A DNA stretch of 64,000 nt from Tubulanus polymorphus (lineage: Eukaryota > Animalia > Nemertea): the NCBI RefSeq assembly GCF_964204645.1, contig NC_134033.1, positions 9,494,655 to 9,558,654 on the forward strand, given 5' to 3'. This document shows positions 700 through 54,505 of this stretch, one piece after another; position 1 is the first letter of the stretch; the number at the start of each line of letters is the position of its first letter. The notes under the pieces are model-generated. The model saw only the letters and a list, made by a program, of their open reading frames with translations. It was not told the origin of the DNA and ran no database searches. The position numbers and the translations under genes are program-made.

Positions 700-1797
700 A
701 TGAGTGGTAAAAAAACTCCTAATACTAAAGAACAATATTTAAGAAATTTATATTACAACCCTGAGAGTTCGGTTGCTTATTCTTCTACTAAAAATATATG
801 GCGTAAAGTAAAACAAGATAAATTAGATAAGATAATCCCACAAAATTTAGTTAAATATAAAGATATAAATGAATTTATGTTAGAACAACCAACGTATACA
901 ACACATAAAAAAATTGTTAGAAAATATAAAACTCGTAAAACTATGGTAAGTTATGTAGATCAACAGTGGCAAGGAGATTTAATTGATATGAAAAATCTTA
1001 AAAAAGATAATGATGATTATTGGTGGATATTGAATATAATTGATATTTTTAGTCGTTATGTATGGAGCTTCCCACTTTATAGAAAAGATGCTGCACAAAC
1101 ATCACATGTTTTAAGAAAATTTCTTTCAGGTGGTAAACTAAAACCAGAAAAAATTCAATTTGATAATGGAAAAGAATTTGATAATTCATTAGTTCATGGA
1201 CTTTTAGATTTTCATAATATTAAATATTTTTCAACAAAATCGGATAAAAAAGCAGCAGTTGTTGAACGATTTAATAGAACATTAAGAACAAGAATGTGGA
1301 AATATTTTACAGCAAATAATACTTTTAAATGGATTGATGTTTTACCAAAATTGATAGAAGGATATAATAATTCTTATCATTCTTCTATTGGAATGAAACA
1401 TATTGATGCTAGAAAACCTGAAAATGCTGAAATTGTTTGGAATAATTTATATGGAGCATTTCTTGTAGATGATTTTGGTGAACCTAAATTTAAAGTTGGT
1501 CAAAATGTTAGAATTTCTAAGTATAAAAAGATATTTGACAAAGGATACGATCGAAATTTTACTAGGGAAATATATAAAATAAAAAAGGTAATAACAACAA
1601 AACCATATGTCTATAGATTAGAAGATTTAGATGGTGAAGAAGTTGATGGATATTTTTACGAAGAAGAATTAAGTTTAACTACTGAAAATCTAGAACAAGA
1701 ATATAAAATTGAAAAAGTACTAAAAACAAAAACTGTTAAAAGAAAAAAATATTCTTTAGTAAAATGGGTTGGATGGCCAGATAAATTCAATGAATAG
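700..1797 (+). CDS. Retroviral-like (rve) integrase with C-terminal chromodomain; premature TAG removes last ~10 codons
   Basis: WQGDLID, IIDIFSRY, IQFDNGKEF, AAVVERFNRTL (DDE core); YKIEKVL..LVKWVGWP chromodomain; frame continues past TAG 1795-1797 to TAA 1825-1827. Confidence 0.95.
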   Translation: MSGKKTPNTKEQYLRNLYYNPESSVAYSSTKNIWRKVKQDKLDKIIPQNLVKYKDINEFMLEQPTYTTHKKIVRKYKTRKTMVSYVDQQWQGDLIDMKNLKKDNDDYWWILNIIDIFSRYVWSFPLYRKDAAQTSHVLRKFLSGGKLKPEKIQFDNGKEFDNSLVHGLLDFHNIKYFSTKSDKKAAVVERFNRTLRTRMWKYFTANNTFKWIDVLPKLIEGYNNSYHSSIGMKHIDARKPENAEIVWNNLYGAFLVDDFGEPKFKVGQNVRISKYKKIFDKGYDRNFTREIYKIKKVITTKPYVYRLEDLDGEEVDGYFYEEELSLTTENLEQEYKIEKVLKTKTVKRKKYSLVKWVGWPDKFNE

Positions 1798-1827: not shown

Positions 1828-2436
1828 ATGAATAAGGAATTATTTATATTTGAGCCTCATAATATGTTAATTTCTGGTGTAACAAATTGTGGAAAAACTT
1901 ATTTTATATTAAATTTATTAGAAACTGTTTACAAAAACTATTTTGATAATATAGTATTATTTTGTCCAACATATGAATTTAATCAAACTTATGATAGAAA
2001 CATTACTAGAAATAATAAATTTATTATATTAGATCCTAAAACAGTAAAAGAAAATTTAGATAATTGTATTAAAATAGCAATTGATATTTATAAAGGATCA
2101 AATACATTATTCATTATAGATGATTGTGCTAATCTACATGATTCAAAAGTTAGAGAAAGTGAGTTATGCTATTTAGCTTTCTCTGGGAGACATTTTGGGA
2201 TAACAACTTGGGTTTTAAATCAAAAATATAATTCAATTGTTAAAGACTTTAGAGAAAACATTAGATTTCTAGTTTTATTCTACAATAAAGATAGAAAATC
2301 GATGAAAAATGCACTCGAGGAAAATGATATTATTCCACATGATTTACATAATGAATATATGGATGAGTTGAAAAATATTAAAAGATCAAAATTACTATTT
2401 AGATTACAACACCCATTTAAATATGAATTTATTTAA
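1828..2436 (+). CDS. A32-like (FtsK/HerA) DNA packaging ATPase
   Basis: Walker A SGVTNCGKT, Walker B LFIIDD, GRHFGITTWVLNQ motif. Confidence 0.92.
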   Translation: MNKELFIFEPHNMLISGVTNCGKTYFILNLLETVYKNYFDNIVLFCPTYEFNQTYDRNITRNNKFIILDPKTVKENLDNCIKIAIDIYKGSNTLFIIDDCANLHDSKVRESELCYLAFSGRHFGITTWVLNQKYNSIVKDFRENIRFLVLFYNKDRKSMKNALEENDIIPHDLHNEYMDELKNIKRSKLLFRLQHPFKYEFI

Positions 2437-4583: not shown

Positions 4584-4910
4584 TTAATCAACAATTTCTA
4601 AATCATGATGACCGTCTTCATTTTTCCCATGATATATTATTTTAAATCCTACTAAATCTTTCAATTCCTCCATACTCAATGAAACCCATTTATCGGGTAA
4701 AAACACTTTAAATTCTCGTGATGTACTAACATTACAGTAGCTTAAATTAGCTGATACTTTCTCTCCATATTTAGTTTTTATCTTTTCTAATTTCAATATT
4801 TTATGTTCAATTTCTTTTGTAACATCAACTAACTTTTTTATTTCAAATTGTTTTTTTGTTGGTTTTATTCTGTTATTTATTGTTGCTAAGAATGCTTTTC
4901 TATCTCCCAT
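4584..4910 (-). CDS. Small conserved Polinton protein, homolog of 53383-53736 (possibly nucleic-acid binding)
   Basis: Shares KKL..., TKYGEK/NKYGDK, FLPDK/YLPDR and YHGKNEDGHHDLE/YKGKNEKGHHEID with the copy D ORF. Confidence 0.75.
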   Translation of the reverse strand: MGDRKAFLATINNRIKPTKKQFEIKKLVDVTKEIEHKILKLEKIKTKYGEKVSANLSYCNVSTSREFKVFLPDKWVSLSMEELKDLVGFKIIYHGKNEDGHHDLEIVD

Positions 4911-5173
4911 TTATTAGGAAAAAAAATTACTTGTGGTGATGAGTGGTGTCTCGTCCTCTGATCTGAAAACGCCATCTTCTAATTACTCATGTCAATAACC
5001 ATGAGTACGCACCAGTATTTACTGACGCATCCTCCCTCGGCAGGGATTCCAACCTGATGGCATCGCTACACTCAGCCACGACACGAACCCCTGCCACACT
5101 AGACTGGGTGCTCAGGTACATGCGCAGCTTTGCCGCACGAAAACCTGCGGCACCAATCATATTGCTCGTTGTG

Positions 5174-5522
5174 AGTAAGTGAAAGTTGGGGGTTTCATAC
5201 CAGGGGCACAAGGCACGAGGCTAGGTAGGTTTTTGGGTAAAAATGTTGGGTAAAATATATTGGGTAATTTTTTTCTATATAAATGGGAGATAAAAATACA
5301 AGTAAAAATGTTGATAAAAATAGAATATTTTGCAAATATTTGTGATACATATGTCAGTAAATCGAATATATCGCATCATGATAAATCACGTCAACATCAG
5401 AAAAATGTAATTGATGTTGAAAAAATTGATACAGATGAAAAAATTTAAAAAAAAACAGATTCTATTAAACTGAATGACATTTATTGCAATATTTGTGATG
5501 AATATATTTAAAAAAAGAACTA
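5174..5522 (+). pseudogene. Polinton copy B stub: terminal motif plus decayed zinc-finger N-terminus of pPolB (ATG 5283)
   Basis: Starts AGTAAG..GGTTTCATACCAGGGG; SHHDKSRQHQKNVID and YCNICDEYI.KKNY match SHHEKSSNHIKNVID and KCEVCNEFIVKRNY at the start of copy C pPolB; cut at TA|CAGT 5521-5526. Confidence 0.75.
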
Positions 5523-5730
5523 CAGTAGACTTCGCATACCTCGGAGTCATTCACCTCGGAATATTGCTTAGCTCAGATCAAATCAAAAATATTTTTCTTA
5601 ATGCAATTATTTCTTAAATGAAAATCTCCGAGTAGCGCGGAGTTGCATACGTCGGAATATCGCATACCTCAGAATGATTTTTTTAATAAATTGAGTCCTA
5701 AAATCGTGTACCTCGGAAATTCTGAACATC
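5523..5730 (+). mobile_element. Left end of a Tc1/mariner-pogo-like DNA transposon; right end not found
   Basis: TA|CAGTAGAC start, repeated (ta)cctcggaa subterminal words, abrupt composition change. Confidence 0.45.
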
Positions 5731-7568: not shown

Positions 7569-7885
7569 TAGACCGGGAGCTGGCTCAATTTATTCAAGTG
7601 AAGAGAGGAATACCTGTTTATACCTTCATTTGATTGGTATTATGGCAGGTATACAGGATCAGAACTTCTGCCCATGCGCAGCCTGCTAGTTAGACCCTGG
7701 TGGCAATATTTTGAATAAAAAAAACTTGAATAGAGGCTACAATGTGGGTCTAAAATATTGCCACCTAGCAGGCAGTGCATCGGCAGAAGTTCTGATCCTG
7801 TATACCTGCCATAGTACCAATCAAATGAAGGTATAAACAGGTATTCCTCTCTCCACTTGAATAAATTGAGCCAGCTCCCAGTCTA
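7569..7885. mobile_element. Fold-back MITE with ~140-bp TIRs (TAG...CTA ends, 3-bp CTA duplication; Academ-like)
   Basis: tagaccgggagctggctcaatttattcaagtg... is inverted at ...cacttgaataaattgagccagctcccagtcta; CTA at 7566-7568 and 7886-7888. Confidence 0.8.
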
Positions 7886-8749
7886 CTAGGTTTTAAAAAA
7901 TCTACAAAGAACTATTGCTTCCATTGCGCTAACGAGGTCTGAAGGTGATGGCGCACGGCGGAAACTTAGTAAAATATGATGACGTAACAAATGATACAGT
8001 AGCCTTTTAACTGGAATCAAATGGAACCAGTGATTTTTGTCTGACTAGCTGTAAATGGAAATTAAATTGATTTTACCTGCTACCCTTGATTTATTTTAAT
8101 TTGCTGTTAACAGAAATTGGATCAAATTGCAATAGTTCTAAAATTTCTCTAATTAGTAAAAAAGAACAAACTGTGTTCAATTTTATCACTTTATAGGGTC
8201 CGATCTAAGGAATGTAGAGGCGCAGATCCAGGGCCATACAGTGACTACAGCACAGTGAAAAAGGGCACCAACTTTGAAAGGGCCAGTATTAATGCCCAGC
8301 GAGCGAGTTTGAGTTTGAGTGCAATCATTGGTATCATGCCACTAAATTTGTCTTCACATTCAATTCGCTTTTAGCCTTTTTTAGATATTTGGTCAAAATT
8401 GGCCTTTTCTCGATCAAATTTATAGAGCGACAATAATTTCTTTTTTAGAATAGTGCCCTTTTGAGTAAAAAATGCCTTGGATTGCCTTTTATGATTTTGG
8501 GCAATTTATTTCATTCACATTTCGCTTTAGGCCTTGTACAGAAAGGCAATTATTTTTAATGACGTACAAATTTCGTGCCCTTTTAGTTTTTTCCCGAAAT
8601 TTTCAAAGGCATTTGAAAAGTGCGACTACCGCACGTGCTGCATGTGCGATAGTCTGGATCCGCGCCTGCATCATGCTGAACAAGTGTTTTCATTGGCAAC
8701 CTATGTGGTTGTCTTTATTCGAACCAATTTGAAAGGTTTTTTTGTGCAT

Positions 8750-9751
8750 TTAAACGGTCACTTCTTTGTCTGACAACTTGATCCAATTAGGCATAAAGAA
8801 ATCTTCATATTTAAACATGACATCTGCCCACGAATATTTTTTGCGTGCACTGCCGTAGTAAATGGTCGTACCATTGGCTAAAAATGCTGAAAAAAATCCG
8901 AACGAACCAGTAGTCAAAATTGTGTGGTTGCATTTCGATAATATTGCCATATCAGTTATTTGATCATGTCCCTCAGAGTAAATGGTTCTATCGGCAAGTC
9001 CAACGTTATTTTTACACCACACTATATCATTGCTGCAAACTACAAATACAATATTATTGTATTTGCGTTTCATGATTTCGAATGCTCGATGAAAGTAGTC
9101 ACGTCCTGCAGTTTTCATGCCTCGATTAGTCCACCGTTTATTCATTATATCTCCACGACGAACATGAACCCCTATGTACGTATATGGTTGACTTGATGAT
9201 GGCCCAGCCTCGATTTTTGCAACAGAATTTTGGATGAAATCAGCTGCATTTTTGTCTATGTTATCAACAAATCTGAATTCTTGACGGATGACATCTGCCA
9301 TGTACGAGAAGTATCTCCAAGACTGGAAATATCCATCTAATAATAGAGTTCCTTTTTTTGGCAGCAAAAAATGCTCCCTGGAATATTGACAACAATGTTC
9401 CTTATATGTTGTGTCACCATACATCAGCCATGAGTCATAAAGCCACCGGCTTATCGAACGAGCCTTACTGATCTTAAAATACTTCCACAAAACCGCATCA
9501 TCAACAAGATATATATCTGGTTTTCTCACTGACGACTCATAAGCGATGCCTAACAATGAGGCATACTGGAACATGTTGTTGCCTAGCCTGTCCCTTATCT
9601 TAACTGTCATGGCGTAATCGCCTAGTGATGAATTTTCAAATTCATATTTCCGTTTGTATTTGTGTAGATAGATTGTTGTTAAAAGGGTTACAACAATAAT
9701 GAGAAGAATTAAAGCACGCTTAATCCGACGAGATATCACTATATCATGCAT
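8750..9751 (-). CDS. Galactoside alpha-1,2-fucosyltransferase-like (GT11, FUT1/FUT2 family), host gene, single coding exon
   Basis: Type II N-terminal TM; RLGNNMFQYA, GYFQSWRYF, GVHVRRGD, DMAILSKCNHTI..GSFG motifs; polypyrimidine-CAG splice acceptor at 9779-9795 just upstream of the ATG. Confidence 0.92.
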   Translation of the reverse strand: MHDIVISRRIKRALILLIIVVTLLTTIYLHKYKRKYEFENSSLGDYAMTVKIRDRLGNNMFQYASLLGIAYESSVRKPDIYLVDDAVLWKYFKISKARSISRWLYDSWLMYGDTTYKEHCCQYSREHFLLPKKGTLLLDGYFQSWRYFSYMADVIRQEFRFVDNIDKNAADFIQNSVAKIEAGPSSSQPYTYIGVHVRRGDIMNKRWTNRGMKTAGRDYFHRAFEIMKRKYNNIVFVVCSNDIVWCKNNVGLADRTIYSEGHDQITDMAILSKCNHTILTTGSFGFFSAFLANGTTIYYGSARKKYSWADVMFKYEDFFMPNWIKLSDKEVTV

Positions 9752-10177
9752 GGTTCTTAACTTTAAAATTCAGCATATCTGAAAATGAAAAAGAATTGTA
9801 CATCAGTTTTAACAAAAAACTTGACCCGTTGCTAAGGTTGTTTATAAACTAAATCCTCAGATAAATCCGAAGTTAACAGTACAGATACAATCACTATGTC
9901 AATTATGTTTCTATGCCAACTGCAAAACATGGTCTTGTCCACTCTGTCCGACATATTATCAGTTTAAAACAATATTATCCTGGAGCAGATTCAGGGGCTG
10001 ATTTTGATTGGAGCGCTCAACAAGAGGCCCACGGGCACAGTGGAAGTAGAATGATTCAGTATTCAAGATTTTACAGACAGATGTTACCAAAATGTTCTTT
10101 CTGTTGATATATCCTCACATGAAAAGAAAACAAAGCCAAGCCCATTTTAGCTGCCCCAAAACATTTACAACATGAAA

Positions 10178-10950
10178 CTAGGGGTCCAGGGACACCATGC
10201 CCACTTGGGAAGTGGTTTCAAATGCTCAACAATCTAACAATTTCAATATTCAACGCCCCCTGGTGACCATATACAAAAACCAATGACCTTGAAACTAACC
10301 ACAATCATAGAACATGTCAGCAGCTACGATTTTGTAATTGACTGTGATAACAAAATAAGCCTCGTTACCAATTTAATATGGAAATACTAAGTTATTCAAC
10401 TATTCAACGCCCCCTGGTGACCATATTCAAAACCCAATGTCCTTGAAACTCACCACAATCATTGAACATGTCATGAGCCAAGCTACAACTTTGCAATTGT
10501 TCATGGTAACAAAATATGCCTAGGTACCAATATAATAAGGAAATACTTAGTTATTCTATTATTCAACGCCCCTAGTGGCCATATAGAATAACTAATGTCC
10601 TTGAAACTCACCACAATCATAGACGATGTCATGAGCTACAAATTTGCAATTGATTGTGCTAATAAAATATGCATTGGTACAAATATAATATAGAAATACT
10701 AAGATATTGTATTATTCAACGCCCCCCTGGTGGCAATATACAAAAACCAATGACCTCGAAACTCACCACAATCATAGAACACGTTATAAGCTAGAACTTT
10801 CTAATTCATTGTGGTAACAAAATATGCTAAGGTATCAAGATAATGTCGAAAAACATTTTCCCACCTACGAATGAGTACTGATGACACCAAGATGGCCGCC
10901 AATTGCGTCATAATTGGCTGATCAAAAATACCTAACCCAGGTATAAAACT
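10178..10950 (-). mobile_element. Helentron-associated (HINE/DINE-1-like) non-autonomous element, family 1, 5'-truncated, four ~155-bp internal repeats
   Basis: Same sequence as 38258-39290, 46552-47740 and 61664-63073; abuts Polinton copy C at a deletion junction. Confidence 0.75.
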
Positions 10951-11120
10951 GATAAAGTAACTGCTAATGTTAATTTTAAGATATCATTTATATCAAATCT
11001 ATCAACATTAACACTTCCCATTTTGAATACTTTTTTTAATACCATTGAATAACCAACAGTTCCAACTGATAGTAATGCTCCATTATATAATCCAGTTATT
11101 ATCCACTTATTATCACTCAT
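10951..11120 (-). pseudogene. Small hydrophobic Polinton protein, 3'-truncated (intact at 54866-55087)
   Basis: Near-identical to the copy D gene up to LAVTLS, then joins HINE sequence. Confidence 0.8.
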
Positions 11121-11477
11121 TTATTTATCAAAAAAATTACTATCTTCAAAATATTTAGTTATCTTAGTGATGATTAATTCAACATTTATTTCATTACTAG
11201 TTTGATTTGTATATATTTCAATTATTATTTTTTTAATATCATCGATGAAAAAATCTTCACCTAATTCATAAAATCTTAAAGATTCTCTAATTAAATTAGT
11301 AATCTTTTCTACATTAAAAGTTTCTTTATCTATTGTTTTTTCATACTCAAATGTTGTTTCATTAGAAAATGTAATATTTTTGATATGTGTAATTACATCA
11401 TTAATGTTAAATTTCATTTCTTTCTCACGTTTAAAATCAAATCCAAAACATATACTCGGTCCAACAGTTATATTCAT
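11121..11477 (-). CDS. Polinton hypothetical protein (homolog of 54523-54858)
   Basis: MNITVGPSICFGFDFK...NEINVELII shared by both copies. Confidence 0.75.
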   Translation of the reverse strand: MNITVGPSICFGFDFKREKEMKFNINDVITHIKNITFSNETTFEYEKTIDKETFNVEKITNLIRESLRFYELGEDFFIDDIKKIIIEIYTNQTSNEINVELIITKITKYFEDSNFFDK

Positions 11478-11493
11478 TTATATAATGAAAAAA

Positions 11494-12241
11494 TTACTCT
11501 CTACATCTTATAAATAATTCATATATCACAGGAAAGTTATTCAAATTAATTAAATAACCATTATGATTTCTTATTTCTAATCTAAAATTATTAAAATGTG
11601 GAATACAAGGTTTGAAATCACATTCAGTTAAATTATAATTTATTTGAGTTCCAAATTGTTTGACAATGGTAAAATATTAATAAACCAGAATTACAAATTG
11701 TATCTTTAGTTGCTTCGAATGTTTTTGTAGGATCAATTAAATTACAATAAATATAGTAGTGCGTAAAAGGTATTATATTTGGTGTAGTATAAACATTTGA
11801 ATAAAGTATATTTGGATTAACTCCTAGCATTTTAGCTAATGGTTTTCTTACTGCGAATTTATATTGTTCATTGGTTAAATTTATTCCTATTTTATTAGTA
11901 CTATCAATTTTATTAAATTTAATGTTAAAATTGGAATCACCTCTAATTTGTATTCGTGCTTTTCTATTAATTTCTTGAGCTAATGTTTCTAAATTATATT
12001 ATCCTGGTGTTAGCATAAGTTGAACCCATTTATGATTATTTTTATTAAAAATTAAGAAGACTCTATGGTCATTAGTTTTATCTGATACATTATAAAAAGA
12101 GTTACATAAACTTATATTTACTAATTTCAAATCTACACAATTCTTAAATTCTCTATCTAATTGTACTAATAAATTATGAGATTTATAATTTGTAAGTCTT
12201 CTAGAATCAACAAATATTCTGCATTCTTTTAATTCTACCAT
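11494..12241 (-). pseudogene. Minor capsid (penton-like) protein, frameshifted
   Basis: Fragments 11999-12241 and 11633-11830 plus C-terminal FRLEIRNHNGYLINLNNFPVIY; homolog at 53754-54505. Confidence 0.65.
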
Positions 12242-12299
12242 TATTTATAACATAAAAAAATTACCACTCATCACCACAAGTAATTTTTTTCCCTAATAA

Positions 12300-13575
12300 A
12301 TGGATGAGAAGATACCATGTGAAATTTGTGGTGAACTTCTAAGAAAAAGTAATATGGCTCGACATATGAAAAAACATGATGAAAATTATAAACCCCCTAA
12401 ACTAAACTGTCCAAAATGTAATAAATAATTCTCAAGAAATTATGTTAAAAAACATTCAGAGAAGTGTAAAATTAATGGCGCAACGGCTAATGTTGATAGT
12501 AATGAAAGAAATAGTAATTCTGCTGAAGTTGAACCTGAAGTTATTTGGAAAAGTCCTTTCTTATTCTATGATAAGGATAATATAAAAGATTATTTCTGTG
12601 AGCCTTGTCTAATGAAATATAGCCCTGAAAATATAGAAGATTGGGAGAATCATCAATTTCGTAAAGCACATATAGATAAAATTTCTAATAAATTTGAAAC
12701 TGAATTCAATGAAAGAAAAAATAATTTATTAGAAAAAATAAAATATGAGAAAACGTTACCAGATAATAAAGAAACATTTGAAAAGTTAGAAAAACAATAT
12801 AATGAATTAACAAGAAAAACATATTATTGTAAATATTGTAAATTGATTATTACAACAAGTAATTCAAATCTACATAATAGAACAATAAAACATAAAGAAA
12901 ACGTAAGAAAATACCAGGAGCTTAATGAAGATCTATTACCAATAAATTATAAACGAAAATGTCCACAATGTAGTTATGCGACCTTAAGGCAAGAAGGTAC
13001 TGTGTTATTTTGTAATGAATGTGGATGGCAAAAGAATTTATGGAGTGAAGAAAAAACTAGAAATTTTCTCATAGATCCAAAATTAAATTATCTAGATGAA
13101 ATTTTTAAAATATTTTCTATAGAAGATCATACACCAGAATATATGCAATGGCTTAAAAAAATGAAAATAATAGAAAATAAAAATGGTGAAATAACTAAAA
13201 AAGATATTATAAAAACAATTATTCCGTCAACATTTAACACAAAACAAAAGAAAATGTATTAAAAAATATAAAAAAAATATTCAAACAAATATTAATGTAT
13301 CATTTGGAAAATAGAATAACAGATCAATAAATTATGAATTCTTTTTAAATAAGATTGTAAATTATTTAAACATAGATATTATAATTCCATGTGATGAATT
13401 AACAAACAAAAAGAAACAAAGAGAGCGAGATGAAATGTGGCGCAAGATAGAACTTTATTTAAATAAGAAAAATGAAAAGGAAGAAGAACCTAAACAAATT
13501 ATACAAGAACAATTAAATGAAAATGAAGAAGCCAATAGTGATTTCGATTATGATGATATTGATTTCATGTTTTAA
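12300..13575 (+). pseudogene. Zinc-finger protein fused to a poxvirus VLTF-3 (A2)-like late transcription factor domain; one nonsense codon and three small indels
   Basis: ATG 12300 is in frame with ORF 12612-13262 across TAA 12426-12428; CPQC..FCNECG ribbon, NFLIDPKLNYLDEIF; after frame repair IFKQILMYHLENRITDQINYEFFLNKI...RDEMWRKI; acidic tail; stop 13573-13575. Confidence 0.7.
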
Positions 13576-16500
13576 TGTCCATAAGGTAATGTTTTTATAC
13601 CATCATCTGAAATATGTCTTTTATCATCAAATGGATTTAAACTAGTTTTTTCAACTTCATTAATATACATCTCGTGATCTTCTGATCTTAAACAATTCAT
13701 TTTGTGTTTCATTACAATTGAGTTATATAAACACTTTATATAATCTTGAAATTCTATATGTTTATCAACCACATGTTTTGTTATTCCTTTTAACTTTTTA
13801 GCTTCATGATCTTTTGTTCTATAACTGTACATTTTACTTCTTATCCCAACAAATTCAATCATTTCATCACCCCCTAATTCATCTTTAAACTTACCAGGAA
13901 TCTTTTTTTTATCATTGCTAAATAGTTCATGATCTTTGGGATAATTGCTAAAATCAAAATGATTTTTTAATGTTTTTAAGTCTTTTGTTATGTCATTTGT
14001 CTTGATTTTTAGTATGTACGCGTCAGTATTGAAGCAAATTAATGGAAATCCACAGTTAAATGTACCATCTTCAGTTGATAAATCATAAACATAATCTGAT
14101 GGGTTATATATTTCAAATAAATCTTTAACTTCTTCAGTTAAATCTTTTTCTGTGTGGCTTAGATTAAAGCAATTTGGTTTAGATTTAATCAATCCAATAT
14201 TCATATTGAAGCCTAATGAATTACATAATATATTTAACCCTGATATAGCAACTTTTCCTTTCTGTGCAAAGGTTATCTTTTTATCCTTTGTAAATTTTTT
14301 AGCACCTTCTGCTGCATAGAATCCAATGAAGAACCATTTTCTTAAATTATTTTTTGCATTTAATACATAATCTGGAACTATCTTTTCTTTTGTTGAAGTA
14401 TTACTTTTCACTATTGCATGAATATAGAATTTATCATTATATTTTATAGCAAAATCTTTAGGATTATTTACAAGTAGTCTATAAACTGCTGATGATTTCA
14501 TAACATCCATGATTCTAAATGTTTTATGTGAATAAACTTCTTCACAGAATTTCTTAATTCTTTCTAATAATTTTAAGTCTTGATTGCATAAATACCAACA
14601 ATATTTATTACCCCAAACATAATTATACACACCTGCTCAACCATCACCCATGAAAAATCCTTTGATAAAATATTCTTTTTCTTCTAATGTTTCGGGTTCT
14701 ATATTATAAATATTATCAATTATTTCATCAAATGACATATGATTCATTCTTTGGAAAAATCTTTTATGTAATAATTCATCTCCAATTTTTATATCAGTTG
14801 GTTTTATTTCATCGCCATTTCGTTTAATTAAACTATGATCTTCTGTAACATCTACAAATCCTAATTTAGTTCTAACTCTATAGATTTTCTAATTTGTTTT
14901 ATGCCTTATAATATTCTTTAATTTTTTCCATCCATTTCTTGTCCAAACATCCATTAATCCATTTATTTGTATTAATTCTTTTTCACCATATGAAATATAA
15001 CATTCATTTTGTTTTGGAATTATTTCTGAAATTCTTCTTACCAATATTTTATTATTACATTTTAATAATATTGGGGTGTCAGCTGTTACAGAATCAAAAT
15101 ATAATATTTCAATATGCTTTTCCCCAAAAAGTGGTTGTAAAACATTATAATAAAAATCATACATTAATAATTTTGATACTTCTAAAACAGTTGAACCAAT
15201 AAATATAGGTTTATCAAATTTCATTGACGTTCTTTTTAATTTAACTGCTGTTAAATAATCTTCAAATCTTTTATTTCCTAAATGTCTAGGATTGTAAATG
15301 TCTTAATCTTTCAGAATTATTTACTAATTCAATATCATTTCTATTTCTAATATTTTCACATGTTTTACCATAAAAACTATTAATCATTAATTTGAAGAAA
15401 TCTTTTTCAAAATCTGTTTTAGATATGGTTCTCTGTTGAGTATTGAAATCTATATATTTTTCTAACCACTTTGATTGATTAAATTCAATATATCTATGTA
15501 CTTTCTTTAATTTCATTCCTTGTTTTAGATAAAATTTTAACATTCTATAATGAACAATATAATTGTATTTATTATTTTGAGTAAGTATTAATTTTTCTGT
15601 AAAAACATGATCTTTCGGTTTTATTTTCTTCTGGTATTCACTTAAATAACTATCATCTACAGTTAAATGTTCTGGGCAATAAGGTAAGTTTCTTGTTTTA
15701 AACTTTATTTTTTCAGGATATTCTAAATCAACTACAAAGAAATAACCAATTGGTGCTTCATCATTTTAAACTCGCAATTGCGCTTTCCCAATCAGTTTTA
15801 TCATCATTTTCAACTTCTGTTAATATAAAATTTTTATATGGTTGAGGTTGCATCATTGCCCAGCCATATAAATTATTGGCGTCAATATATAATAATTTAT
15901 ATTCATCATTTGCTTTAAAATATCTATCTCCCATAACACCACTAATTCCACCTCTAATTGATTTTTCAAATAATAAAACCATATCTGGTTCTTTTAATAA
16001 ATCTAATTCTACATTTGTATATTTTAAACCACATTGCCAGGTTAAACCAGGACTTGAATAACAATAACAAGGATCAACATTAAAATGATTTAAATTAACT
16101 TCTCTAAATTTTTCAAATATGTCAGCCAATATCATAACATCTGATTTAAAATATAAATCAACTAATTCACCATGATTTTTCATCTTAAAATGGTTCCAAA
16201 TATTTAATGTTCTATTAAACAGTTCATCTTTCACATACTCCTCTTTTAATTGATCATAAAATTGATCTTTTAATAATTCTGTTACATTAAAATCATTGTG
16301 TGTTTTATAAAATGAATAAGGAATTGCGCCTTTATATCTCAATAATTTAAAATCTTGGTCATTTGGATAATAATATCGAGTTATAACAAAATCATTATCA
16401 ACTAAACTTTTTGATAAATTATCTAATGAACTTGCTAGAAATCTATAAGAATCTAAAAATCTAATGCAACCAAATTGAAATGAAATGTAATTTTCAGATG

Positions 16501-18632
16501 TTTTAGCTAATAGTTTAAAATCATATTTTCTTACATTTACACCATTCATAGCATTATATTCTTCTATTTCTTGATTAATTGAACCCAATTTCCTTGATAA
16601 TTGTTTTATAAATAGATGGGTATCATAACCTGATAAATTATGAAATAATATTGGCACGAAATTAACTTTCTTAGCTTGTAAATTGCAATCTTCATGAGCA
16701 GCTCCACGATATTTTGAATTTAAATGATCATGATCTCTAACTTTTTTATCAAATGAATAAAAACGTTTTTCACAATAACAACAATGAGTTGCATAATTAA
16801 AATCAATTTCATCTTCTTTTGTCATAACTATTCTTTTATTTTTGTTTAATAATTTTGCAAAATCACTTTCTAATTCAATCATTTTATCACAAAAATCATT
16901 AACTACATTTTCACCTCTAAAAGAAATATATTGACTTTCATATAATTCAGGATAATTTCATTTTATATAAATTCCATAAGCAGCAGCTCTTTGATGAACT
17001 TTTTTAATTGTATTTATAATTGGTGGGTCTTGTATTGTGTCTTCATTAAATTCATTTCCTTTATCCATTGATTTTAATAATTGTTTTTTGTTATATATTT
17101 CTTTTCTATCTTGATCAGTTAATTCTTTATTCAACGATTCAAAATCCCCATAAATTACAAATGGAACAATATTCTTAAATTTATGATTAGTAAATTTCAA
17201 TTCATAATCTTTTTCTGTTGGCATTATTAATTTACAAAAATCTTTATTATCACATAATTCTTTATGTTTTAATAATGTATTCTCTGTCATAAATTTAGAT
17301 AAACATTTTCTACATAGATAAATTCTATGATGATGATCACTTTCTGTTCTAAAGAATAAATCAATTTGTTTTAACCACATATAATGTTCATTTTCATCTT
17401 TTTTGTAATATAACAAATCTATAGCATTTTCATCATCATAATATTCTGTTAAATATAAAGCTTCCAATGTATAATCTTTAATATTTTCACCTTTTGTCTT
17501 TGGTAATTGCATTAATTCAAATACATTTATTTTTAAATTATTAACTTTTTCTATTTTAGGAATCATTTTTATAGTTACTGGATATTGATCAATTTTATAT
17601 AATGTTTCATATTTCCGGAAATTTGTTATTCTAAAACTATGCGTCATATCTTCTGTTGGGTGTAAACAACTAATAATTGACCATAGAAAACATTTATTAT
17701 CTTCATTTTGAACATTTATTACTGCTTTTGTTGTAAATGGTAATTTAATATAAGATGATGCTTTAATATCCTTTTCTGTTGTAAAGTTTGAATCATTTTT
17801 AAACATTTTATTACTTTTTGATGTTTTATTCCTTTTTGTATTGTAAACATTTAAATCTAAATATATAATTTCATTCAATGTTAAGCCAGAACCCTCAAAA
17901 TATCTTTCTTCAATATGACGTTAAAATTCATAAAATATTTTTTCTAACTTCTCTTTTATTTGCGTTTTTGAAATTATTTCTTCAGAGAGTGTTTGAATAT
18001 TATAATCCATTTTTTCTTCTGACTTTATAAAACTTACTTTCCCAGAGATACTAATTTTTGGATATTCAACATCTGTTATCAAATCTAGTATTTTTTCTAT
18101 TTTTTCATTAAATTTACTATAATCTTCTATTGTTGTACCTTTAAAAAATCTAAATATAATAGCCGCAGGACCAATTTTACTATGTAATGTTTCTAAAATT
18201 TCAATTGTATCTTTTATTTCTAGTGAATCAATATAATTTCTAACATTTTCCATGTAAGGTTTATTTGAAATGGATTTAGTTTTTGAATTTGTTTTTTTTT
18301 ACTTTTTGAGGTTTATCGTTAAAATAATCTTTTCCTAAAACATTATTACTCAAATTTTGGTGGTGTTTTTGTGATTCGAGATGTCTATTATAATTCCTTT
18401 TTACTATAAATTCATTACAGACTTCACATTTTATTTCATCCACATTCATATTTTCTAATCGTTCTTTTCTTTCATTGGAATTTTCTGAAGTTTCAAAATC
18501 TATAACATTTTTTATATGATTTGAAGATTTTTCATGATGCGATTTTTGAGATTAATCAATGTATTTTTTACAATATGGACAATAATATTGATTTTCATTT
18601 ACATCAATTAGTTCTGTCTTATTCTCTTCCAT
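13572..18632 (-). pseudogene. Protein-primed family B DNA polymerase (pPolB), intein-containing, several stops and frameshifts
   Basis: N-terminal zinc fingers; YGDFES, FHNLSGYD, FLDSYRF exonuclease motifs; DANNLYGWAM, KLMINSFYGK, YFD|TD, KLKGI polymerase motifs; RDHDHL..YRGAAHEDCNL endonuclease VII-like insert. Confidence 0.95.
14028..15092 (-). mobile_element. Intein with LAGLIDADG homing endonuclease in pPolB motif C (1065 bp, 355 codons, two in-frame stops)
   Basis: Block A SVTADTPILL, block B VTEDHSL, FIKGFFMGDG and FFIGFYAAEG, block F YVYDLSTEDGTF, C-terminus ICFN|T; absent from copy D (YFDTDS). Confidence 0.93.
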
Positions 18633-18689
18633 TTATAAGGAAAAAAAATTGCTTGTGGTGATGAGTGGGGATTACTTCCCCTTGTATAT

Positions 18690-18915
18690 AACAAGCACGC
18701 TATTAACCGTTCTCACCCAAGCCTCACAGCATCTATTTATCTGGGCACAGTTGACACGCAATCACTGTACTACTACAGTAATAGCAGACGCGTTAATAAC
18801 CGTTCTCAGTAGAGACTCACTGTATCGATCTATCCACGCGCAGATGTTGTTACGCGCACTCACTGTATATGTGTGTCACAGAGCAATCGTCCGTTCTCAC
18901 TAGAGCCTAGCTGTG
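18690..18915. repeat. Subterminal imperfect ~95-100-bp repeats of Polinton copy C
   Basis: ccgttctcac/ccgttctcag...ctcac recurs at about 18707, 18800 and 18891. Confidence 0.55.
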
Positions 18916-19520
18916 ATGAGTGGTGTCTCAACCTCTCAACCTCTGGTATGAAAGCCCACTTTTCCAATTACTTGCACGTACCCACGTAGGGGGATGGGGG
19001 TTTTAGAAATCCGTACAGGGGGAGGGCAGGGGTGAGCTCAAAGTGTACATACTTCTCTCAAGGGGGGGGTGGGTTATAGTACGTAATTAGTGCACGAAAC
19101 ACAATAGGCCTATGATTTTTACAAATATCCCGTATATTTGTTGGGATTTCCTGGGAATCCCCCCGTCTCGGTCTTTCACTTTGTCGATTCGGTAGGCCTA
19201 CATCGTCATCGGATCTCTAATGAATGCTGGTGATTTTTTACCATGGATCCTGAAAAATTCACTTTTACAGGGAGGGGGGTCATTCATAGAAGTATGACGC
19301 CAGCAGGGTTACAAAAAAAAAAACGTACAGAGAGCGTACATGGTGGGAGGGTTAAAATACCCGGAAGTCAAGCTTACACGTTTTATGCACGGCCTCTAGG
19401 CCTAAATAGGACCGATATTATTTGATTTTAATTTAGCTCCATGGCCTAGGTATATTAGGTTGGGCATACAGCTCACTTGCGCGAGAATATAGGCCTACCA
19501 GACACTGATATCTTTCTTAA

Positions 19521-26894: not shown

Positions 26895-29654
26895 ATGGCT
26901 GCTCGAAAGAAAGTTTTCAGTGCTAATCAAGTTTTAGGCAAGATTTACGCCGACGACGACAGTGAAGATGACGATTTAGATGACGGGGTGATTTCGGACT
27001 GGGCGGAGACGACTCTTGGGACGAAGATGACTATGCCCTTGACCTCGATGCCGATTTCAACTTTGATGAATTCGAGGAGTTGGATCAGCCTCAACCAGGT
27101 ATATGCCTTTAGGCAATCACAAAACTCTATTACATAAAGCTATAATGACGATGATAAGATGACCCGGTTGTTTTATCTATTTATTTTTATTTCAGAAGTG
27201 TGCAGCACTGATGATAACGTATTGGATTTAGAAGAGGAAGGAGACCAGGATATTATACAAAGACAAGAGTGCACTTTCGGTGAGTCATACATATAATTGC
27301 TCAAAAGTGGTACAGCAACTTTAGAGATGAATGAATATATAGATATATAAATGAATACATAAATACACGAATAACAGTTTTATTGTCTTTAAGGCGATGC
27401 CCAACAATCGACATCGGCCCCTCCAGTCTTCAATCTTTTTTCGCCCGACCAACGCAGAGTTCCCGCTGTGCCAGATTCTCCAGAAACTCCAACACCACGT
27501 CCAGTTCAAAAAAGTACTTTTCTTCTTACTCCATGTGGTGCAATTGTTCTGCAAAAAAATAATCATTTTGAAAACAAATAAAAATATTGTGTGTTGAACA
27601 GTTTATTTTTCTCTTCAGAAAAACGTAAAGTCACAACACCACCAGCACCAAGGCCAGAACCTCTGGTGAAGATACGCTGCACAGATACAACACCTGTGAC
27701 CACCGTTTCAGCACTGAGGCAACATCCTCCACCAGTTGCATCACAACCTGTTCCAAGACAGCCCACACATGCTCCACCTGTGGTACAACCAGTTGCCCAA
27801 CAGCCAGCGCCAAGAAAACAAGCTCCCCCTCTGGTACAACCTGTTGCCCAACAGCCAGCGCCAAGACAACAAGCTCCCCCTGTGGTACAACCAGTTGCCC
27901 AACAGCGAGCGCCAAGACAACAAGCTCCCCCTGTGGTACAACCAGTTGCCCAACAGCGAGCGCCAAGACAACAAGCTCCCCCTGTGGTACAACCAGTTGC
28001 CCAACAGCCAGCTCCAAGACAACATGCTCCTGCCGGCCGTCGGATGCGAGCTGATGATGCTCCCTGGTTTTGGGAACGAACTGAAAACTTTCGTCCAAAA
28101 GCCATCCCATTCACTGGGGAAGAAAAACTTCTCGTTGATATGCCACAGGGAGCTAAACCGATTGATTATTTTTCCCTATACCTTACTGAAGAAATAATAG
28201 CACACGTGGTCACCGAAACAAACAGATATGCCCAACAATTCCTGACAGCTAACGAAGACACCCTGAAGCGGCGATCCAGAGCCAGGTTATGGGAGCCAGT
28301 CGAGCAGGCTGAGATGAAGACATTCCTGGCTCTTCTCGTATTACAAGGAATTGTATATAAACCGAGAATCAACATGTACTGGACACAAGAAAAGCTTGTG
28401 GCTACTCCAATTTTTGGTGAATGTATGAGTCGTGATCGGTTTCTGAACATTTTAAAATTCTTACATTTCGCAGATAATGAAGCAGACGGCTATGACCCGA
28501 GAGATCGTGATAGAGACCGACTTTATAAGGTTCGCCCATTGGTTGAAATGTTTCAAACACGATTCCGAGAGGTATATAGCCCGGGTGAAAACCTTAGTAT
28601 CGACGAGTCGCTGTTGCTGTGGAAGGGTCGCTTGAGTTTCAAACAGTTCATTGCCACAAAACGTACACGTTTTGGCATAAAATTTTTTGAATTATGCACA
28701 ACAAAGGGAGTCACCCTTGACCTACTAGTTTACGTAGGGGCAAACACACTCCCTGTACAGCCTCCAGAGATTGCGGCTCTGAACGTTTCCGAGCAAATAG
28801 TCATGCATCTGATGAGAAATTACCTCCAAAAAGGTTACACTCTGTTCATTGATAATTACTACTCATCGCCATCTTTAGCGGCATTCCTGCTGAAGAAAGG
28901 AACGTACGTTGATGGCACGGTTAGAGCGAATCGTCGCAACTTTCCAAAGGAATTGGCAGACCTCCAAATTCAGAAAAATTCATCAGTATTTTTCAAGGCT
29001 CCGGATGAGAACGTTTTGGCCGTAAAATTTCGGGCACATGTTGATAAAGCTAGTGGGAATCCAAAGGTAGTCCATCTCCTCACAACTAGGTTTCCAGCGA
29101 GAGTGGACGATACAAGGAAGAAAACGACGAACGATGTTGCAATTTGCAAACCCACTTGTGTATTGGCCTACAACAAGCATATGGGTGGAGTCGATATGGT
29201 GGACCAGCAACTTCACTACTACCAAGTCATCCGCCGAACGATGAAATGGTATAAAAAAGTAGCAGTCAGGCTGGTGATGCAGGCCCCCCTAAACTCCCAT
29301 CGGATGTTCGAACTACAGGGTAACAAGAAGGATTTCCTTGGGTTTATACATGATGTGCTCGACGTGATGGTTATCACAAGACCAATGATTGCTCGTAATG
29401 TTACCCGTGATGAAGCACTGACCCGTCTCACTGGCCGTCACTTTCCAATGAAGCTTCGACCACTTGGAAGGAAGACCCAACAAAAACGATGCCGCGTATG
29501 CTATGCACGAAATGATCTTGGGCGAACTGGGCGGCCAAAGGACACTATCTGGGTTTGTAAGACTTGCCCTTCTAGACCGGGTCTACACATCGATCAGGAT
29601 TGCTTCGAAGTGTACCACACAAGATTGGACTATTCAACATTTGATGCTGAATGA
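26895..29654 (+). CDS. piggyBac transposase (PGBD4-like), predicted exons 26895-27098, 27196-27279, 27394-27513, 27619-29654; 1-nt frameshift in exon 1
   Basis: SIDES, FIDNYY, GGVDMVD catalytic motifs; C-terminal CRVC..CKTC..H..C..H; GT-AG introns in phase 1; acidic N-terminus. Confidence 0.88.
27725..28030 (+). repeat. 51-bp coding minisatellite (PPVVQPVAQQPAPRQQA, about 6 units)
   Basis: Visible tandem units in DNA and protein. Confidence 0.93.
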
Positions 29655-49429: not shown

Positions 49430-52400
49430 ATGGAAGCAAATAAGTACTACTGTCCAACATGTAATATCAATATAGATAAATCCCAAAAAGCACGACACAA
49501 TAAAACTAAAACACATTTAGAGAATAAATTGAAACTAGAATATGAAGATGATATATTAGAAACTAAATTAAATGAATTAAAGAATGAAAAAGAAACATAC
49601 AAATGTGATACATGTAATCAATCATTCAGTGATAAAAGATATTATAAAGAACATTTAAAATCTAAAAGTCATATTAGAAATAAGAATAATGATATTTTAG
49701 GTGAAGATTATTTTGATGAAGATAATGATAAGAAACAGAAGACAATTAAAAGCATAAAAAATAAATTAAACAATAAAAGACCATACATGGAAGATGTAAG
49801 AAAATATATTAATTCATTAGATAATAAAAAAGATATAGAGATAACCGAAGCATTTAAAAGTGATATTGGCCCAACAGCTATCGAGTTTAAATTTCATAAA
49901 GGAAAAACATTTAGAAAATATGAAAGAAATAATAAAAATAATTACTGATGTTGAATATCCTAAAATTAGTATATCTTTAAAGTAAAGTTTATAAAATCTG
50001 AAGATAAACCAATATATAATATAAATTCTCATTCACAACATATTATTTTAAAACAACATATAGATGATAAATTAGATAAATATTATAATGAAGTAAAAAC
50101 TAAAATAGAAGAGAAATATTTTTAAGGATCTGGTTTAATATTTGATGAGATAATATTTATGACTTTACATGTTTATAACACAAAATATAATAAGTTAACT
50201 AAATCAAAACCAATTGATGAAAATAATGTATCATATTATAAAGAACAAGATATTGAAGCATCGAGTTATATTATACTACCATTTAAAACTAATGCTGTTA
50301 TAAATGTACAAAATGAAGATGATAAATGTTTTCTATGGGCTATAATAAGTTGCTTACACCCAACAGAAGATATTACACATAGTTTTAGATTAACAAATTA
50401 TAAACCATTTGAAAATAATTATAAGATAGATAAGTGTCCTGTTATAATTAAAAACATCCCAAAGATAGAAAGAGATAATAATTTAAGAATAAATGTATTT
50501 GATTTAATCAAATTACCAAATACAAAAGGTAACAATATAAAACATTATACATTAGAACCTTTATACCTATCAAATGATTATGATTCAAACGATGTTATAG
50601 ATATACTATATTATGAGAATCATTATATGTGGATTAAACAAATAGATTTATTCTTTAGAACAGAAAGTGATAACCATAATAAAATATCTCTATGTAGAAA
50701 ATGTTTACATAGATTCAGTAATGAAAGTACATTATTAAATCATAAACAATTATGTGAAAATCATGATTATTGTAAATTAGTTTTACCAAATGAAAAGGAT
50801 AAAATATTAGAATTCAAAAAATATGATTACAAAAATAAAGTTCCATTTGTTATATATGGAGATTTTGAATCATTAAATAAAGAATTAACTGATCAAGATA
50901 GAAAAGAAATATATTATAAAAGAAAGAAATTAAATTCTAATGAAAATGATTTTTCAGATGAACCACCAATAACAAATACAATTAAAAAGATTCATCAATC
51001 AGCTGCTGCTTTCGGGTTATATATTAAATCTGATTATCCAGAACTTATTAAAAGTGAATTATAAAATTATAATGACAGAAGAAGATAAAGAAGCATTTGA
51101 GTTTTCAGATAAATGTTATTATTGTGAAAAGATATTTAATTATAAAGATAAAACAGTAAGAGACCGTGATCATTTGAATGAAAAGTTTAGAGGCGCTGCG
51201 CATGAGAATTGTAACTTACAAGCTAAGAAAATTAATTTTGTACCAGTTATATTTCATAATCTATCAGGATATGATGCACGTTTATTCATCAAACAGTTAT
51301 GCCATAAAATAGAAGAAATTAATAATGAAATAGAAAGATTAAATTCGAATAGATCAAAAGATAAAATACCAACTTATAAATTTAGAATGTTAGCTAAAAC
51401 ATCTGAGAATTATATATCATTCCAAATTGGTTGCCTAAGATTTATAGATTCATATAGATTTTTAAATAGTTCATTAGATAACTTATCAAATTCATTAGTT
51501 GATGATGAATTAAAAATATTAAAGCAACACTACCCAAATAATGATGATTTTCAATTAATGAGATATAAAGGAGCAATTCCATATTCTTTCTATAAAAATC
51601 ATAATGATTTTAACATAACTGAATTATTGAAAGAACAATTCTATGATGAATTAAAAAATGAATATGTTAAAGATGAAGTCTATCATAGAACATTGAATAT
51701 TTGGATTCATTTCAAAATAGAAAATCATGGACAATTAGTAGATTTATATTTAAAATCAGATGTATTATTATTATCGGATATATTCGAAAGGTTTAGAGAT
51801 GTAAACCTAAAATATTTTAATATTGATCCATGTCATTGTTATTCATCACCAGGTTTAACATGGGATTGTGGATTAAAATTTACAGATATAAAAATGGATT
51901 TGTTAACAAATATAGATCAATTACTATTATTTTAAAAATCTATAAGAGGAGGAGTTTCAGGTGTATTAGCGGATAGATATTTCAATGTAAATGATAACCC
52001 TGGATATAAGTTATTATATATAGATGCAAATAATTTGTATGGTTGGGCAATGATGGAACCACAACCTTATGGAGTATTTGAAATAAGTGAAGTTTTACAG
52101 AATGAAAATAATGATAAATTTGATTGGAAGAAAAGAATCCTAGATATTGCAGATGATTCAGATACTGGTTACTTTATTGTTGTAGATTTAGAATATCCTG
52201 AAGATAAAAAATTTAAATCTAGAAATCTAGCTTACTGTCCCGAACATAAAACTGTAACTCATGAAGAATTATCAAATTACCAAAAAAGAATTAAACCCGA
52301 AAATCATATTCATACAGAAAAGTTAATGGTAACTCAAGAAAATAAATATAATTATGTAGTACATTATAGAATGTTAACGTTTTATCTAAAACAAGGAATG

Positions 52401-53353
52401 GTTCTAAAAAAAGTACATAGATATATTTCATTCAGTCACTCTAAATGGTTAGAAAAATATATAGATTTTAACACCAAACAGAGAACTGAAGCTAAAACTG
52501 ATTTCGAAAAAGATTTCTTCAAGTTAATGAATAATGCATTCTATGGAAAAACTTGTGAAAATATTAGAAATAGAAATGATATTGAGTTAGTCAGTAATGG
52601 TAAAAGGATAAGACATTTACAAACATATCCTAAGTTCATTGGTAACAGAATATTTGATGAAAATTTAGCTGCAGTTAAGATGAGAAGAACATCAATGAAA
52701 TTTAATAAACCAATCTATGTTGGCGCTTCAGTTTTAGAATTATCAAAATTACTAATGTATGAATTCTATTATAATGTATTACAACCTCATTTTAGAGAAA
52801 AACATATAGAAATATTATATTTTGATACCGATTCTTACATATTAAAGATAAAAACTGATAACATAACAGATGATTTAAAAACATTAAAACATCATTATGA
52901 TTTCAGTAATTATCCTAAAGATCATGAATTGTTTAGCAATGATAATAAAAAAGTTCCAGGGAAGTTTAAGGATGAATTAGTTGGTGAAGAAATGATTGAA
53001 TTGGTATTAGATCTAAAATGTATTCATATAAAACTAAAACTCATGAAGCTAAAAAGTTAAAAGGAATAACCAAAAGTGTAGTAGAAAAGAATATTCATTT
53101 CAAAGATTATATCAATTGTATATGCAAAGAAGAAGTTAGAAAACATAAGATGAGATGTTTAAGATCTGAAGATCATGAAATATTTATTGAAGAAATTGAA
53201 AAGATAAGTCTAAACCCATTTGATGATAAAAGATATATTTTAGATGATGGAATTCATACAGTTGCTTATGGTTGTAATTTAGATGAATACTTAAAATTTA
53301 AAAGAGAAGAAACAAAAGAGAACGAGATAATGAAAAGAATTCTAACGTGTTAA
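49430..53353 (+). pseudogene. pPolB, intein-free allele, fragmented
   Basis: Same motifs as copy C, with uninterrupted YFDTDSY; split into five ORF-track fragments. Confidence 0.95.
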
Positions 53354-53382
53354 TCAAATTTTAATAAAAATATGTATTATAA

Positions 53383-53736: not shown

Positions 53737-53753
53737 GAACATATGTAAAATAA

Positions 53754-54505
53754 ATGGTAGAATTAAAAGAATACATGATATTTGTTGATTCTAGAAGGCT
53801 TACAAATTATAAATCTCATAATTTACTAGTACAATTAGATAGAGATTTCAAGAATTGTGTTGATTTAAAATTAGTTAATATAAGTTTATGTAATTCTTTT
53901 TATAATATATCGAATAAAACTATTGAACATAGAGCCTTTTTAGTTTTTAATAGACACATAGATTCATATATTTAAAACCGGGGTTATATAATTTAGATAC
54001 ATTAGCACAAGAAATTAATAGAAAAGCCTGGCACAAATTAGGTAGTAGTTCTGGGTTTAGTATTAGATTTTTTAAAAGTGATAGTTCTGATAGGATAAAG
54101 AAAAGGTTGTCTAATAGTGAAAAACATAAATTTATGGTAAAAAAACCTATAGCTAAACTGTTAGGAATTCTTCCAGATAGATCTTTTACAAATATTGACG
54201 CTACTACACCAAACTTAATACCTTACACACATTTCTATATTTATTGCAATTTAATCGATCCTACAAAAACATTCGAAGCAACTAAAGATATAACTTGTAA
54301 TTCTGGTTTACTAAACATTTTACCATTGAAGAATGTTAAAGAATTTGGAACGCAAATAAATTATAATTTAACAGAATGTGATTTCAAACCATGCATTCCT
54401 CGTTTTAATAATTTTAGATTAGAAATTAGAAATCATAATGGGCACTTAATTGATTTAAATAATTTCCCTGTAATTTATGAATCAGTTATAAGATGTAGAG
54501 AGTAA
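53754..54505 (+). pseudogene. Minor capsid (penton-like) protein, disrupted
   Basis: IFVDSR, SFYNIS, PGLYNLDTL, FYIYCNLI, FRLEIRN..G.LIDLNN.PV pattern typical of Polinton minor capsids. Confidence 0.65.

Follow-up and report, generated by a model that had tools for sequence, protein, structure and literature searches.

The available text of PMC5874633 describes inteins as absent in multicellular organisms. The question raised by the 64,000-nucleotide stretch analysed here (contig NC_134033.1, positions 9,494,655 to 9,558,654; hereafter the window) is whether a Polinton, an integrating element with a protein-primed DNA polymerase (pPolB), carries one, where it came from and in whose genome it resides. 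We describe a LAGLIDADG intein, in frame at motif C of the pPolB of one Polinton (copy C) and predicted to be self-splicing, and with moderate confidence we favour the combined reading of likely giant-virus descent, likely maintenance by homing and likely residence in an animal genome. This reading builds on the insert and its site, motifs and fold match, on a multi-copy family, on precise empty alleles and on one clade that spans five polymerase lineages. The insert measures exactly 1065 bp, runs in frame from Ser to Asn between EILYFD and TDAYILKIKT (minus-strand frame 15302-13572) and interrupts the polymerase at motif C (YFD/T, slashes marking junctions). The reading frame bears out the initial annotation on the length and frame of the insert and on a TAG and a TGA as its only lesions, and all the intein motifs that it quoted are found at their positions (Table 1). 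Motif C is likewise, in the accessible part of PMC549080, the site of the Mimivirus PolB intein and archaeal position III, as had been claimed.

The junction residues of a class 1 intein are present (Ser1, Asn355 and Thr+1), as are the TxxH of block B and the Asp of block F. When translated with X at both stops, the insert matched TIGR01445 (E 1.1e-6, 29.6 bits, above the cut-off of 24.5) and LAGLIDADG_3 (PF14528; E 1.1e-4, 22.8 bits, above the cut-off of 22.5) and came 1 bit short for Intein_splicing (PF14890; E 1.7e-8, 34.8 bits, cut-off 35.8), while the three stop-separated pieces gave no intein match in Pfam. Its best sequence match in the PDB was PI-PkoII (phmmer, E 3e-7). A predicted model built from a 12-sequence alignment (predicted local distance difference test, pLDDT, 87; predicted template modelling score, pTM, 0.88) retrieved endonuclease-bearing inteins as all of its ten best PDB matches in Foldseek (best E 1.7e-17), with I-DmoI also matched, and a BFVD structure search returned five large-virus DNA polymerases among the six best-ranked matches. 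The model and Foldseek thus support a predicted Hint plus two-domain LAGLIDADG fold, and together with the profile matches they agree with the bifunctional intein proposed at the outset. The penultimate residue of copy C is indeed Phe in place of the usual, non-obligatory His, but this is a minor point because 45 of 158 viral members of the allele family also lack His there (His 113, Lys 40, Ser 3, Phe 1, Gln 1). By every sequence criterion other than this His, the insert is an intein. Its guanine-plus-cytosine (GC) content of 0.252, against 0.234, gives it no foreign mark.

As it stands, copy C is a dead pseudogene that neither splices nor cuts: full translation of its intein is impossible because of the two internal stops, and its polymerase has stops or frame changes at about 18552, 18293, 17921, 16958, 15763 and 15289. 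Its relatives are in better condition. A first search gave 43 relatives out of 1938 candidates, and a profile search of longer proteins recovered full-length carriers, with unbroken polymerase-plus-intein frames of 1476-1693 aa in P0077, P0109, P0121, P0124, P0125 and P0200. Among 27 complete Polinton-type inteins that could be parsed, many of them near-copies of one another, the acidic residue of both LAGLIDADG helices is kept in 27 and Thr+1 in 26, and no mini-intein was found. Phe at the penultimate position was rejected as a family trait, this residue being His in 25 of the 27, Ser in one and Lys in one. Counting that of the window, there are five lineages, the others being P0121, the P0048/P0107/P0109 group, the P0077/P0124/P0125 group and P0200; inteins of different lineages are 38-62% identical, that of P0121 being 62% identical to the window intein, and are preceded by YFD, YMD, ASD, SSD, YLD or YGD. 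One cluster in the P0048/P0107/P0109 group has 136 members, with contigs of up to 1 Mb among those listed. Related inteins without a PolB junction occur in P0040, P0110 (a type II topoisomerase), P0372, P0456 and P0493, and others show xxD/S...HN/TD junctions.

The polymerase of P0200 matches PF03175 (E 9e-32) more strongly than copy C's does and, beyond the stretch around the intein, has no BLAST match to the other polymerases; we infer that it belongs to the Alpha class as defined in the accessible text of PMC8502044. Because the P0200 intein falls within the Polinton clade while its polymerase cannot be aligned outside the intein, a lateral move is indicated, and it is well supported that the intein entered Polintons once and moved between polymerase classes at least once. 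On a polymerase tree of 32 rows (11 full and 21 empty, de-duplicated from 81 parsed rows plus seven added, with 53 matches unparsed, mostly for a CDS variant of the site), intein presence or absence changes eight times, with clustering no greater than for shuffled labels, and empty relatives at 85-94% identity stand beside four intein-bearing lineages. Only P0121 carries an intein among the best 120 matches to the polymerase of a second Polinton in the window (copy D), a query that favours empty genes. At the insertion site, 41 of 119 intein-free relatives (P0247-P0365) read YMDCDS, a common variant that could resist cleavage.

Genomic reads extend the picture to copies outside the window. The stretch is partly present in five of 11 listed sequencing runs, four of which carry one species label; none of these is an RNA run, runs X8 and X9 gave 0 records, and run X5, a marine metagenome with a share of 0.07, was set aside as a guide to habitat. 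Reads were taken from a raw genomic run of the same label and another study (X6, about 12% of the run), at likeness thresholds of 85% and 80% in two analyses and with AT bias uncorrected. Against a single-copy reference depth of about 6.6x (three bins over a GT11 glycosyltransferase gene), the intein is covered at about 216x on average (19 bins, 135-262x), with peaks of 580-690x on its flanks. Depth arithmetic puts the number of intein-bearing copies at about 33 (20-40), out of as many as about 100 related polymerases. Both stops are private to copy C, which suggests that nearly all intein-bearing copies are free of them; at position 14307, in the second LAGLIDADG helix, 163 of 164 reads likewise differ from the window base. 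In run X1, contig depths summed over the element (8500-19500) exceed the depth of the GT11 contig several hundredfold, where the raw X6 reads give a factor of about 30-100; contig depths of runs X1 and X2 were not taken as copy numbers.

Empty alleles exist as DNA, since reads skip the intein precisely: 20 join 14027 to 15093 exactly, omitting 14028-15092, and 47 join 14018 to 15093 via nine other letters, with the same 1065-base deficit, while a further 102 have loose ends at 15093. The initial annotation had placed the empty allele in the window itself. Copy D is indeed empty (its motif C reads EILYFDTDSYILKIKT from 52809), but it is not the matching allele, and the matching empties are those in the reads. 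Upstream of the site copy D matches 28 of the 30 bases that flank the intein and downstream 21 of 30, and the two polymerases share 75% DNA and 72% protein identity, the empty database protein P0250 being nearer to copy C (85%) than copy D is. Copy D was rejected as a direct pre-insertion allele on account of this divergence, and is therefore better described as a sister subfamily that displays the empty state.

The conserved residues lead us to predict class 1 splicing, in which an acyl shift at Ser1 would be followed by transfer to Thr+1 and Asn cyclisation, with the Thr and His of block B and the Asp of block F involved, and which would rejoin the two aspartates of motif C. Since the intein splits this motif, an intact copy could retain polymerase function only through excision of the intein. 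The endonuclease would cut the empty motif C site in closely related copies, and repair would copy the intein in; homing between copies may thus maintain the family, and the signs of it, all indirect, run both ways. Splicing, cleavage and transcription are predicted, and the observations that weigh against the reading of a virus-derived, homing intein in an animal genome are set out below beside the alternatives that they favour.

It is conceivable, although in our view unlikely, that the intein is a passenger, which entered one ancestral Polinton, homes no longer in this host and is multiplied by transposition of its carrier subfamily, the empty copies having either lost it precisely or descended from an earlier empty state. 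In the main polymerase class, inteins and their polymerases have diverged largely in step (identities of 62/57, 70/73, 80/73, 76/73, 46/46 and 39/47%), as expected from co-descent with losses. D-type copies, moreover, are plentiful and empty, and on the downstream side of the site 9 of their 30 bases differ. At position 14012 the window base is shared by 163 of 418 reads, about as many as cover the adjoining part of the intein (depth 169), and the intein therefore seems confined mostly to C-type flanks; such linkage would be expected if a saturated subfamily existed alongside a resistant one, and equally from amplification by transposition. A passenger does not readily account for the retention of both endonuclease acidic residues in all 27 complete relatives, none of which is a mini-intein, nor for the eight state changes on the polymerase tree, and the distant P0200 polymerase requires at least one lateral move. 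We retain homing as the likely means by which the intein is maintained.

Whose genome this is bears directly on the weight of the finding. The GT11 gene lies 1.2 kb from the element and is intact, with a single exon and, by depth, a single copy; its protein matches exactly on one contig of 16,481,795 bases, and a contig of run X1 is identical to 8642-10199. The 16.5-Mb scaffold, the piggyBac elements and the high-copy repeats indicate a eukaryotic chromosome-scale scaffold, and this scaffold and the reads rule out an assembly artefact or a contaminant contig. A membrane anchor is present in the GT11 protein, whose motifs appear to resemble those of animal FUT1/2; no relative of it was found in the PDB. 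Partly on this apparent likeness to animal fucosyltransferases, we consider that the host is probably an animal. The window holds no animal-diagnostic gene, 60 intergenic open reading frames (ORFs) gave transposase matches only, and no Rfam RNA or tRNA match was found in the window, all of which would suit a protist, an alga or another non-animal eukaryote. A parallel for such a host exists in the accessible text of PMC10710043, where inteins in viral-like polymerases are reported from Klebsormidium, Tetrabaena and labyrinthulomycete nuclear scaffolds; there, as here, an intein reaches the eukaryotic nucleus within a viral polymerase gene, but those hosts are not animals, the Polinton carrier is self-multiplying, and neither 'polinton' nor 'maverick' occurs in the main text seen. 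The scaffold with its NCBI/UniRef-listed gene, the repeat-rich landscape of 38% GC with piggyBac elements, the apparent likeness of the GT11 motifs and a layout of rve integrase, A32-type ATPase and pPolB like that of adintoviruses (PMC8502044, in part) all speak for an animal, and we regard a non-animal host as rather unlikely.

As regards the source of the intein, the initial annotation named a co-infecting large DNA virus, and its closest relatives are indeed found in giant viruses. A search with a 10-sequence intein alignment, from which the best 80 viral and best 80 metagenome loci were taken, gave 158 YGD/S...N/TDS PolB inteins among these 160, the remaining two being cut off, and 118 of the 133 new top matches in a profile search of 1.84 billion representatives were YGD/TDS polymerases; a motif parse recognised no further pPolB carrier among these 133, and viral contigs scanned with P0003 as the only query protein gave no pattern match. 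In an intein tree of 59 rows, rooted on three distant inteins (nine Polinton rows; 43 viral, of which 40 were hand-picked out of 71 de-duplicated; six from prokaryote-labelled genomes; one other), the Polinton inteins, P0200 included, form one clade (100/99). Three nested branches (99/99, 99/92 and 97/97) place this clade inside viral diversity, the last uniting it with the Mimivirus and ChoanoV1 inteins, and a C-terminal G[FY]xLI signature is common to the Polinton inteins and one viral subclade. The insert has the marks of the pol-c allele, namely the site equivalent to YGD/TDS and kinship with the alleles found there. A giant-virus polymerase is therefore, on this sequence evidence, the likely donor.

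That the intein is instead an old Polinton resident or an archaeal arrival appears improbable. The direction from virus to Polinton is likely rather than proven: the approximately unbiased (AU) test did not reject a tree in which the Polinton inteins branch beside all of the viral inteins together (p=0.285). A tree that sets the P0200 intein apart as the sister of the remaining eight was not rejected either (p=0.237). The stem of the Polinton clade measures 0.45 changes per site and its sister is unresolved, and the viral rows were obtained via Polinton-derived queries. Inside the same larger clade lie PolB inteins of 39-41% identity from archaeal-labelled contigs, one of them Promethearchaeota (L161:8522-9547 and L162:10001-11026), which carry the same allele and group with the viral inteins. 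Besides the nested branches and the shared signature, what tells for transfer is that the pPolB classes are too distant for intein identities of 38-46% to have arisen through co-descent.

A giant-virus source would also accord with the manner in which the element genes begin. A T-run, which is a feature of late promoters, and ATAAATG recur at their starts: ATAAATG opens 13 of the 33 ATG-initiated ORFs of at least 60 aa in element DNA (700, 1828, 2709, 3241, 4910, 11120, 11477, 53383, 53754, 54523, 54866, 55112 and 55554), often after AGTAA and a T-run, the other 20 being mostly inner pieces of broken genes, and starts of this type are also seen at 5283, 12300 and 18632. The T-run with ATAAATG has 25 matches at 12 sites, 11 of these in element DNA, against 2.0 expected and at most 9 in 100 shuffles, which ignore the AT richness of the elements. 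Across the whole window, WTAAATG by itself shows no enrichment (74 occurrences, 69 expected), which is limited to the start-codon position and the T-run form. In the accessible text of PMC6211774, TAAAT is the vaccinia intermediate and late initiator, and by analogy the element genes may be transcribed by a large-virus polymerase. A poxvirus-like promoter motif would imply that the elements and a large DNA virus share replication sites, which would give the intein an opportunity to jump, and the first jump may have occurred where Polinton and large-virus DNA replicate together. A fuller picture, which we advance only tentatively, is that of an actively homing intein family on animal chromosomes, in virophage-like parasitic Polintons whose poxvirus-type promoters are transcribed by a large DNA helper virus, the intein having come from the helper polymerase within the viral replication factory and passed between both major polymerase classes.

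That the insert is a non-splicing nuclease domain, comparable to HNH and VSR fusions in Polinton polymerases, or a Hedgehog-type Hint domain is scarcely credible, since, for all that pPolB nuclease insertions are already known (PMC10748475, as far as available), that the Pfam intein score lies slightly under its cut-off and that the penultimate residue is Phe, it splits a catalytic motif that only excision can repair, its junction nucleophiles are all conserved, its fold matches whole bifunctional inteins and the same allele is recognised as an intein in Mimivirus (PMC549080, likewise in part).

The intein is thus of a known type in a new setting, a Polinton-wide family that is multi-copy and polymorphic in a probable animal genome. 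Like the pol-c inteins of Nucleocytoviricota PolB (Mimivirus R322, PMC549080 in the text available; Mimiviridae sp. ChoanoV1, P0153), it sits at xxD/T in motif C, has Ser1, Asn and Thr+1, two LAGLIDADG helices and a comparable length (333-355 aa against 351 aa), and belongs to the same 97/97 clade, with identities to the window insert of up to 40% among the best 160 loci; unlike them, it resides in a protein-primed pPolB of an integrating element, with many chromosomal copies beside empty ones. The archaeal inteins PI-PkoII (2cw7), TliVMA (7qsu) and PI-PfuI (1dq3) and yeast PI-SceI share the Hint and two-domain LAGLIDADG fold (Foldseek E 1.7e-17 to 1e-9), but only 10-18% identity, and lie in cellular genes of single-celled organisms. 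The HNH and VSR domains of Polinton pPolB2 are also nucleases inside a Polinton polymerase, of other families and with no splicing domain reported; 'intein' and 'LAGLIDADG' each occur 0 times in the text of PMC10748475 that was accessible, and pPolB nuclease insertions have been suggested, in the part of PMC11071308 seen, to be relics of intein invasion. The literature searched, including the accessible portions of PMC12220804, PMC5718144, PMC5784728, PMC11131425, 10.64898/2026.09.14.751524 and 10.64898/2026.10.13.758929, does not describe any Polinton with a Hint-domain intein; supplements, InBase, Repbase and subscription journals could hold a mention.

The elements themselves are incomplete. 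Both are truncated: element C occupies approximately 18972-10951, and element D approximately 48968-56224 (Table 1). As in Polintons/Mavericks (adintoviruses, PMC8502044 in part), the window holds a pPolB, an rve integrase, a packaging ATPase and a candidate penton-like gene, the integrase and ATPase lying in a neighbouring fragment that may be another element; unlike those adintoviruses, whose accessible main text is without an intein, the window elements are truncated and element C carries one. The penton-like lead in copy D has an Atlas feature score of 0.96 to a cluster with PF21507 on 59% of its members, its recognition of 2237 lying below the 2300 mark. No major capsid or protease match was found among the window ORFs scanned, and the window yielded candidate single termini but no paired terminal repeats, with 0 matches in a terminus pattern search.

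Table 1. Positions of the intein, its host elements and neighbouring genes in the window
Feature	Position	Strand	Basis or remark
Intein with LAGLIDADG endonuclease domain	14028..15092	-	355 codons; stops at codons 68 and 152
Ser1, N-terminal nucleophile (block A)	15090..15092	-	Ser in 26/27 complete Polinton relatives
Block B, VTEDH (TxxH)	14835..14849	-	kept in 27/27 complete relatives
First LAGLIDADG helix, GFFMGDG	14640..14660	-	helix 136-150 of predicted model
Second LAGLIDADG helix, GFYAAEG	14304..14324	-	helix 248-262 of predicted model
Blocks F and G	14028..14087	-	YDLST 14073-14087; ICFN 14028-14039, terminal Phe-Asn, then Thr+1
Stop TAG, intein codon 68	14889..14891	-	private to copy C: 218/235 reads differ
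Stop TGA, intein codon 152	14637..14639	-	private to copy C: 244/245 reads differ
N-extein, pPolB of Polinton copy C, broken	15093..18632	-	PF03175 E 2.2e-14
C-extein of copy C pPolB, starts TDA	13572..14027	-	reading frame
T-run and TAAATG at likely pPolB start of copy C	18630..18648	-	candidate poxvirus-type promoter, putative function
Candidate left terminus of element C, starts AGTAA	18940..18972	-	similar stretch 5174-5206; read depth drops beyond; putative
Downstream genes of element C: penton-like fragment and small ORFs	10951..12246	-	83% identical to 53748-55035
pPolB of copy D, without intein, also broken	49430..53353	+	
Empty motif C site, copy D	52809..52856	+	junction between 52826 and 52827
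Fragmented penton-like (minor capsid) gene, copy D	53754..54505	+	lead only
rve integrase	700-1797	+	PF00665 E 6.6e-10; neighbouring Polinton fragment
A32-type packaging ATPase	1828-2436	+	PF04665 E 2.7e-13; neighbouring Polinton fragment
GT11 glycosyltransferase gene, host-type	8750..9751	-	PF01531 E 1.6e-38; single-copy reference and scaffold anchor

Just upstream of the copy D polymerase, a hairpin at 48968-49155 begins with AGTAA and has two 91-nt arms, 89% complementary and 6 nt apart; it is possibly a folded-back terminus. Another Polinton fragment lies at 4584-5600, with a minus-strand homologue of ORF 53383, an end of the AGTAA type at 5174 and, at about 5283, the decayed beginning of a polymerase. 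Two piggyBac-type transposases are present, one as an open frame of 690 codons (27582-29654; PF13843 E 1e-79) and a second, broken one at 35970-38230. Repeats comprise an inverted repeat with 121-nt arms at 7569-7885, arrays of a 154-bp unit in both tandem and inverted order at 57419-59661, and tandem arrays of short period at 59866-63524.

If the host is an animal, this intein would be an exception to the absence of inteins noted above, though in a gene of viral type and not in a host gene; any host but a metazoan would reduce the headline to the first intein in Polintons. Because homing needs both DNAs in one cell, the intein may serve as a molecular tag showing that animal-type Polintons have been in contact with large DNA viruses, a contact to which the promoter motif points likewise, and the dependence of Polintons on a helper virus would thereby become testable. 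With many full and empty alleles in one genome, the family offers an uncommon opportunity to measure how often an intein homes into paralogues or is lost from them, and to ask how a single allele crosses between polymerases that can no longer be aligned.

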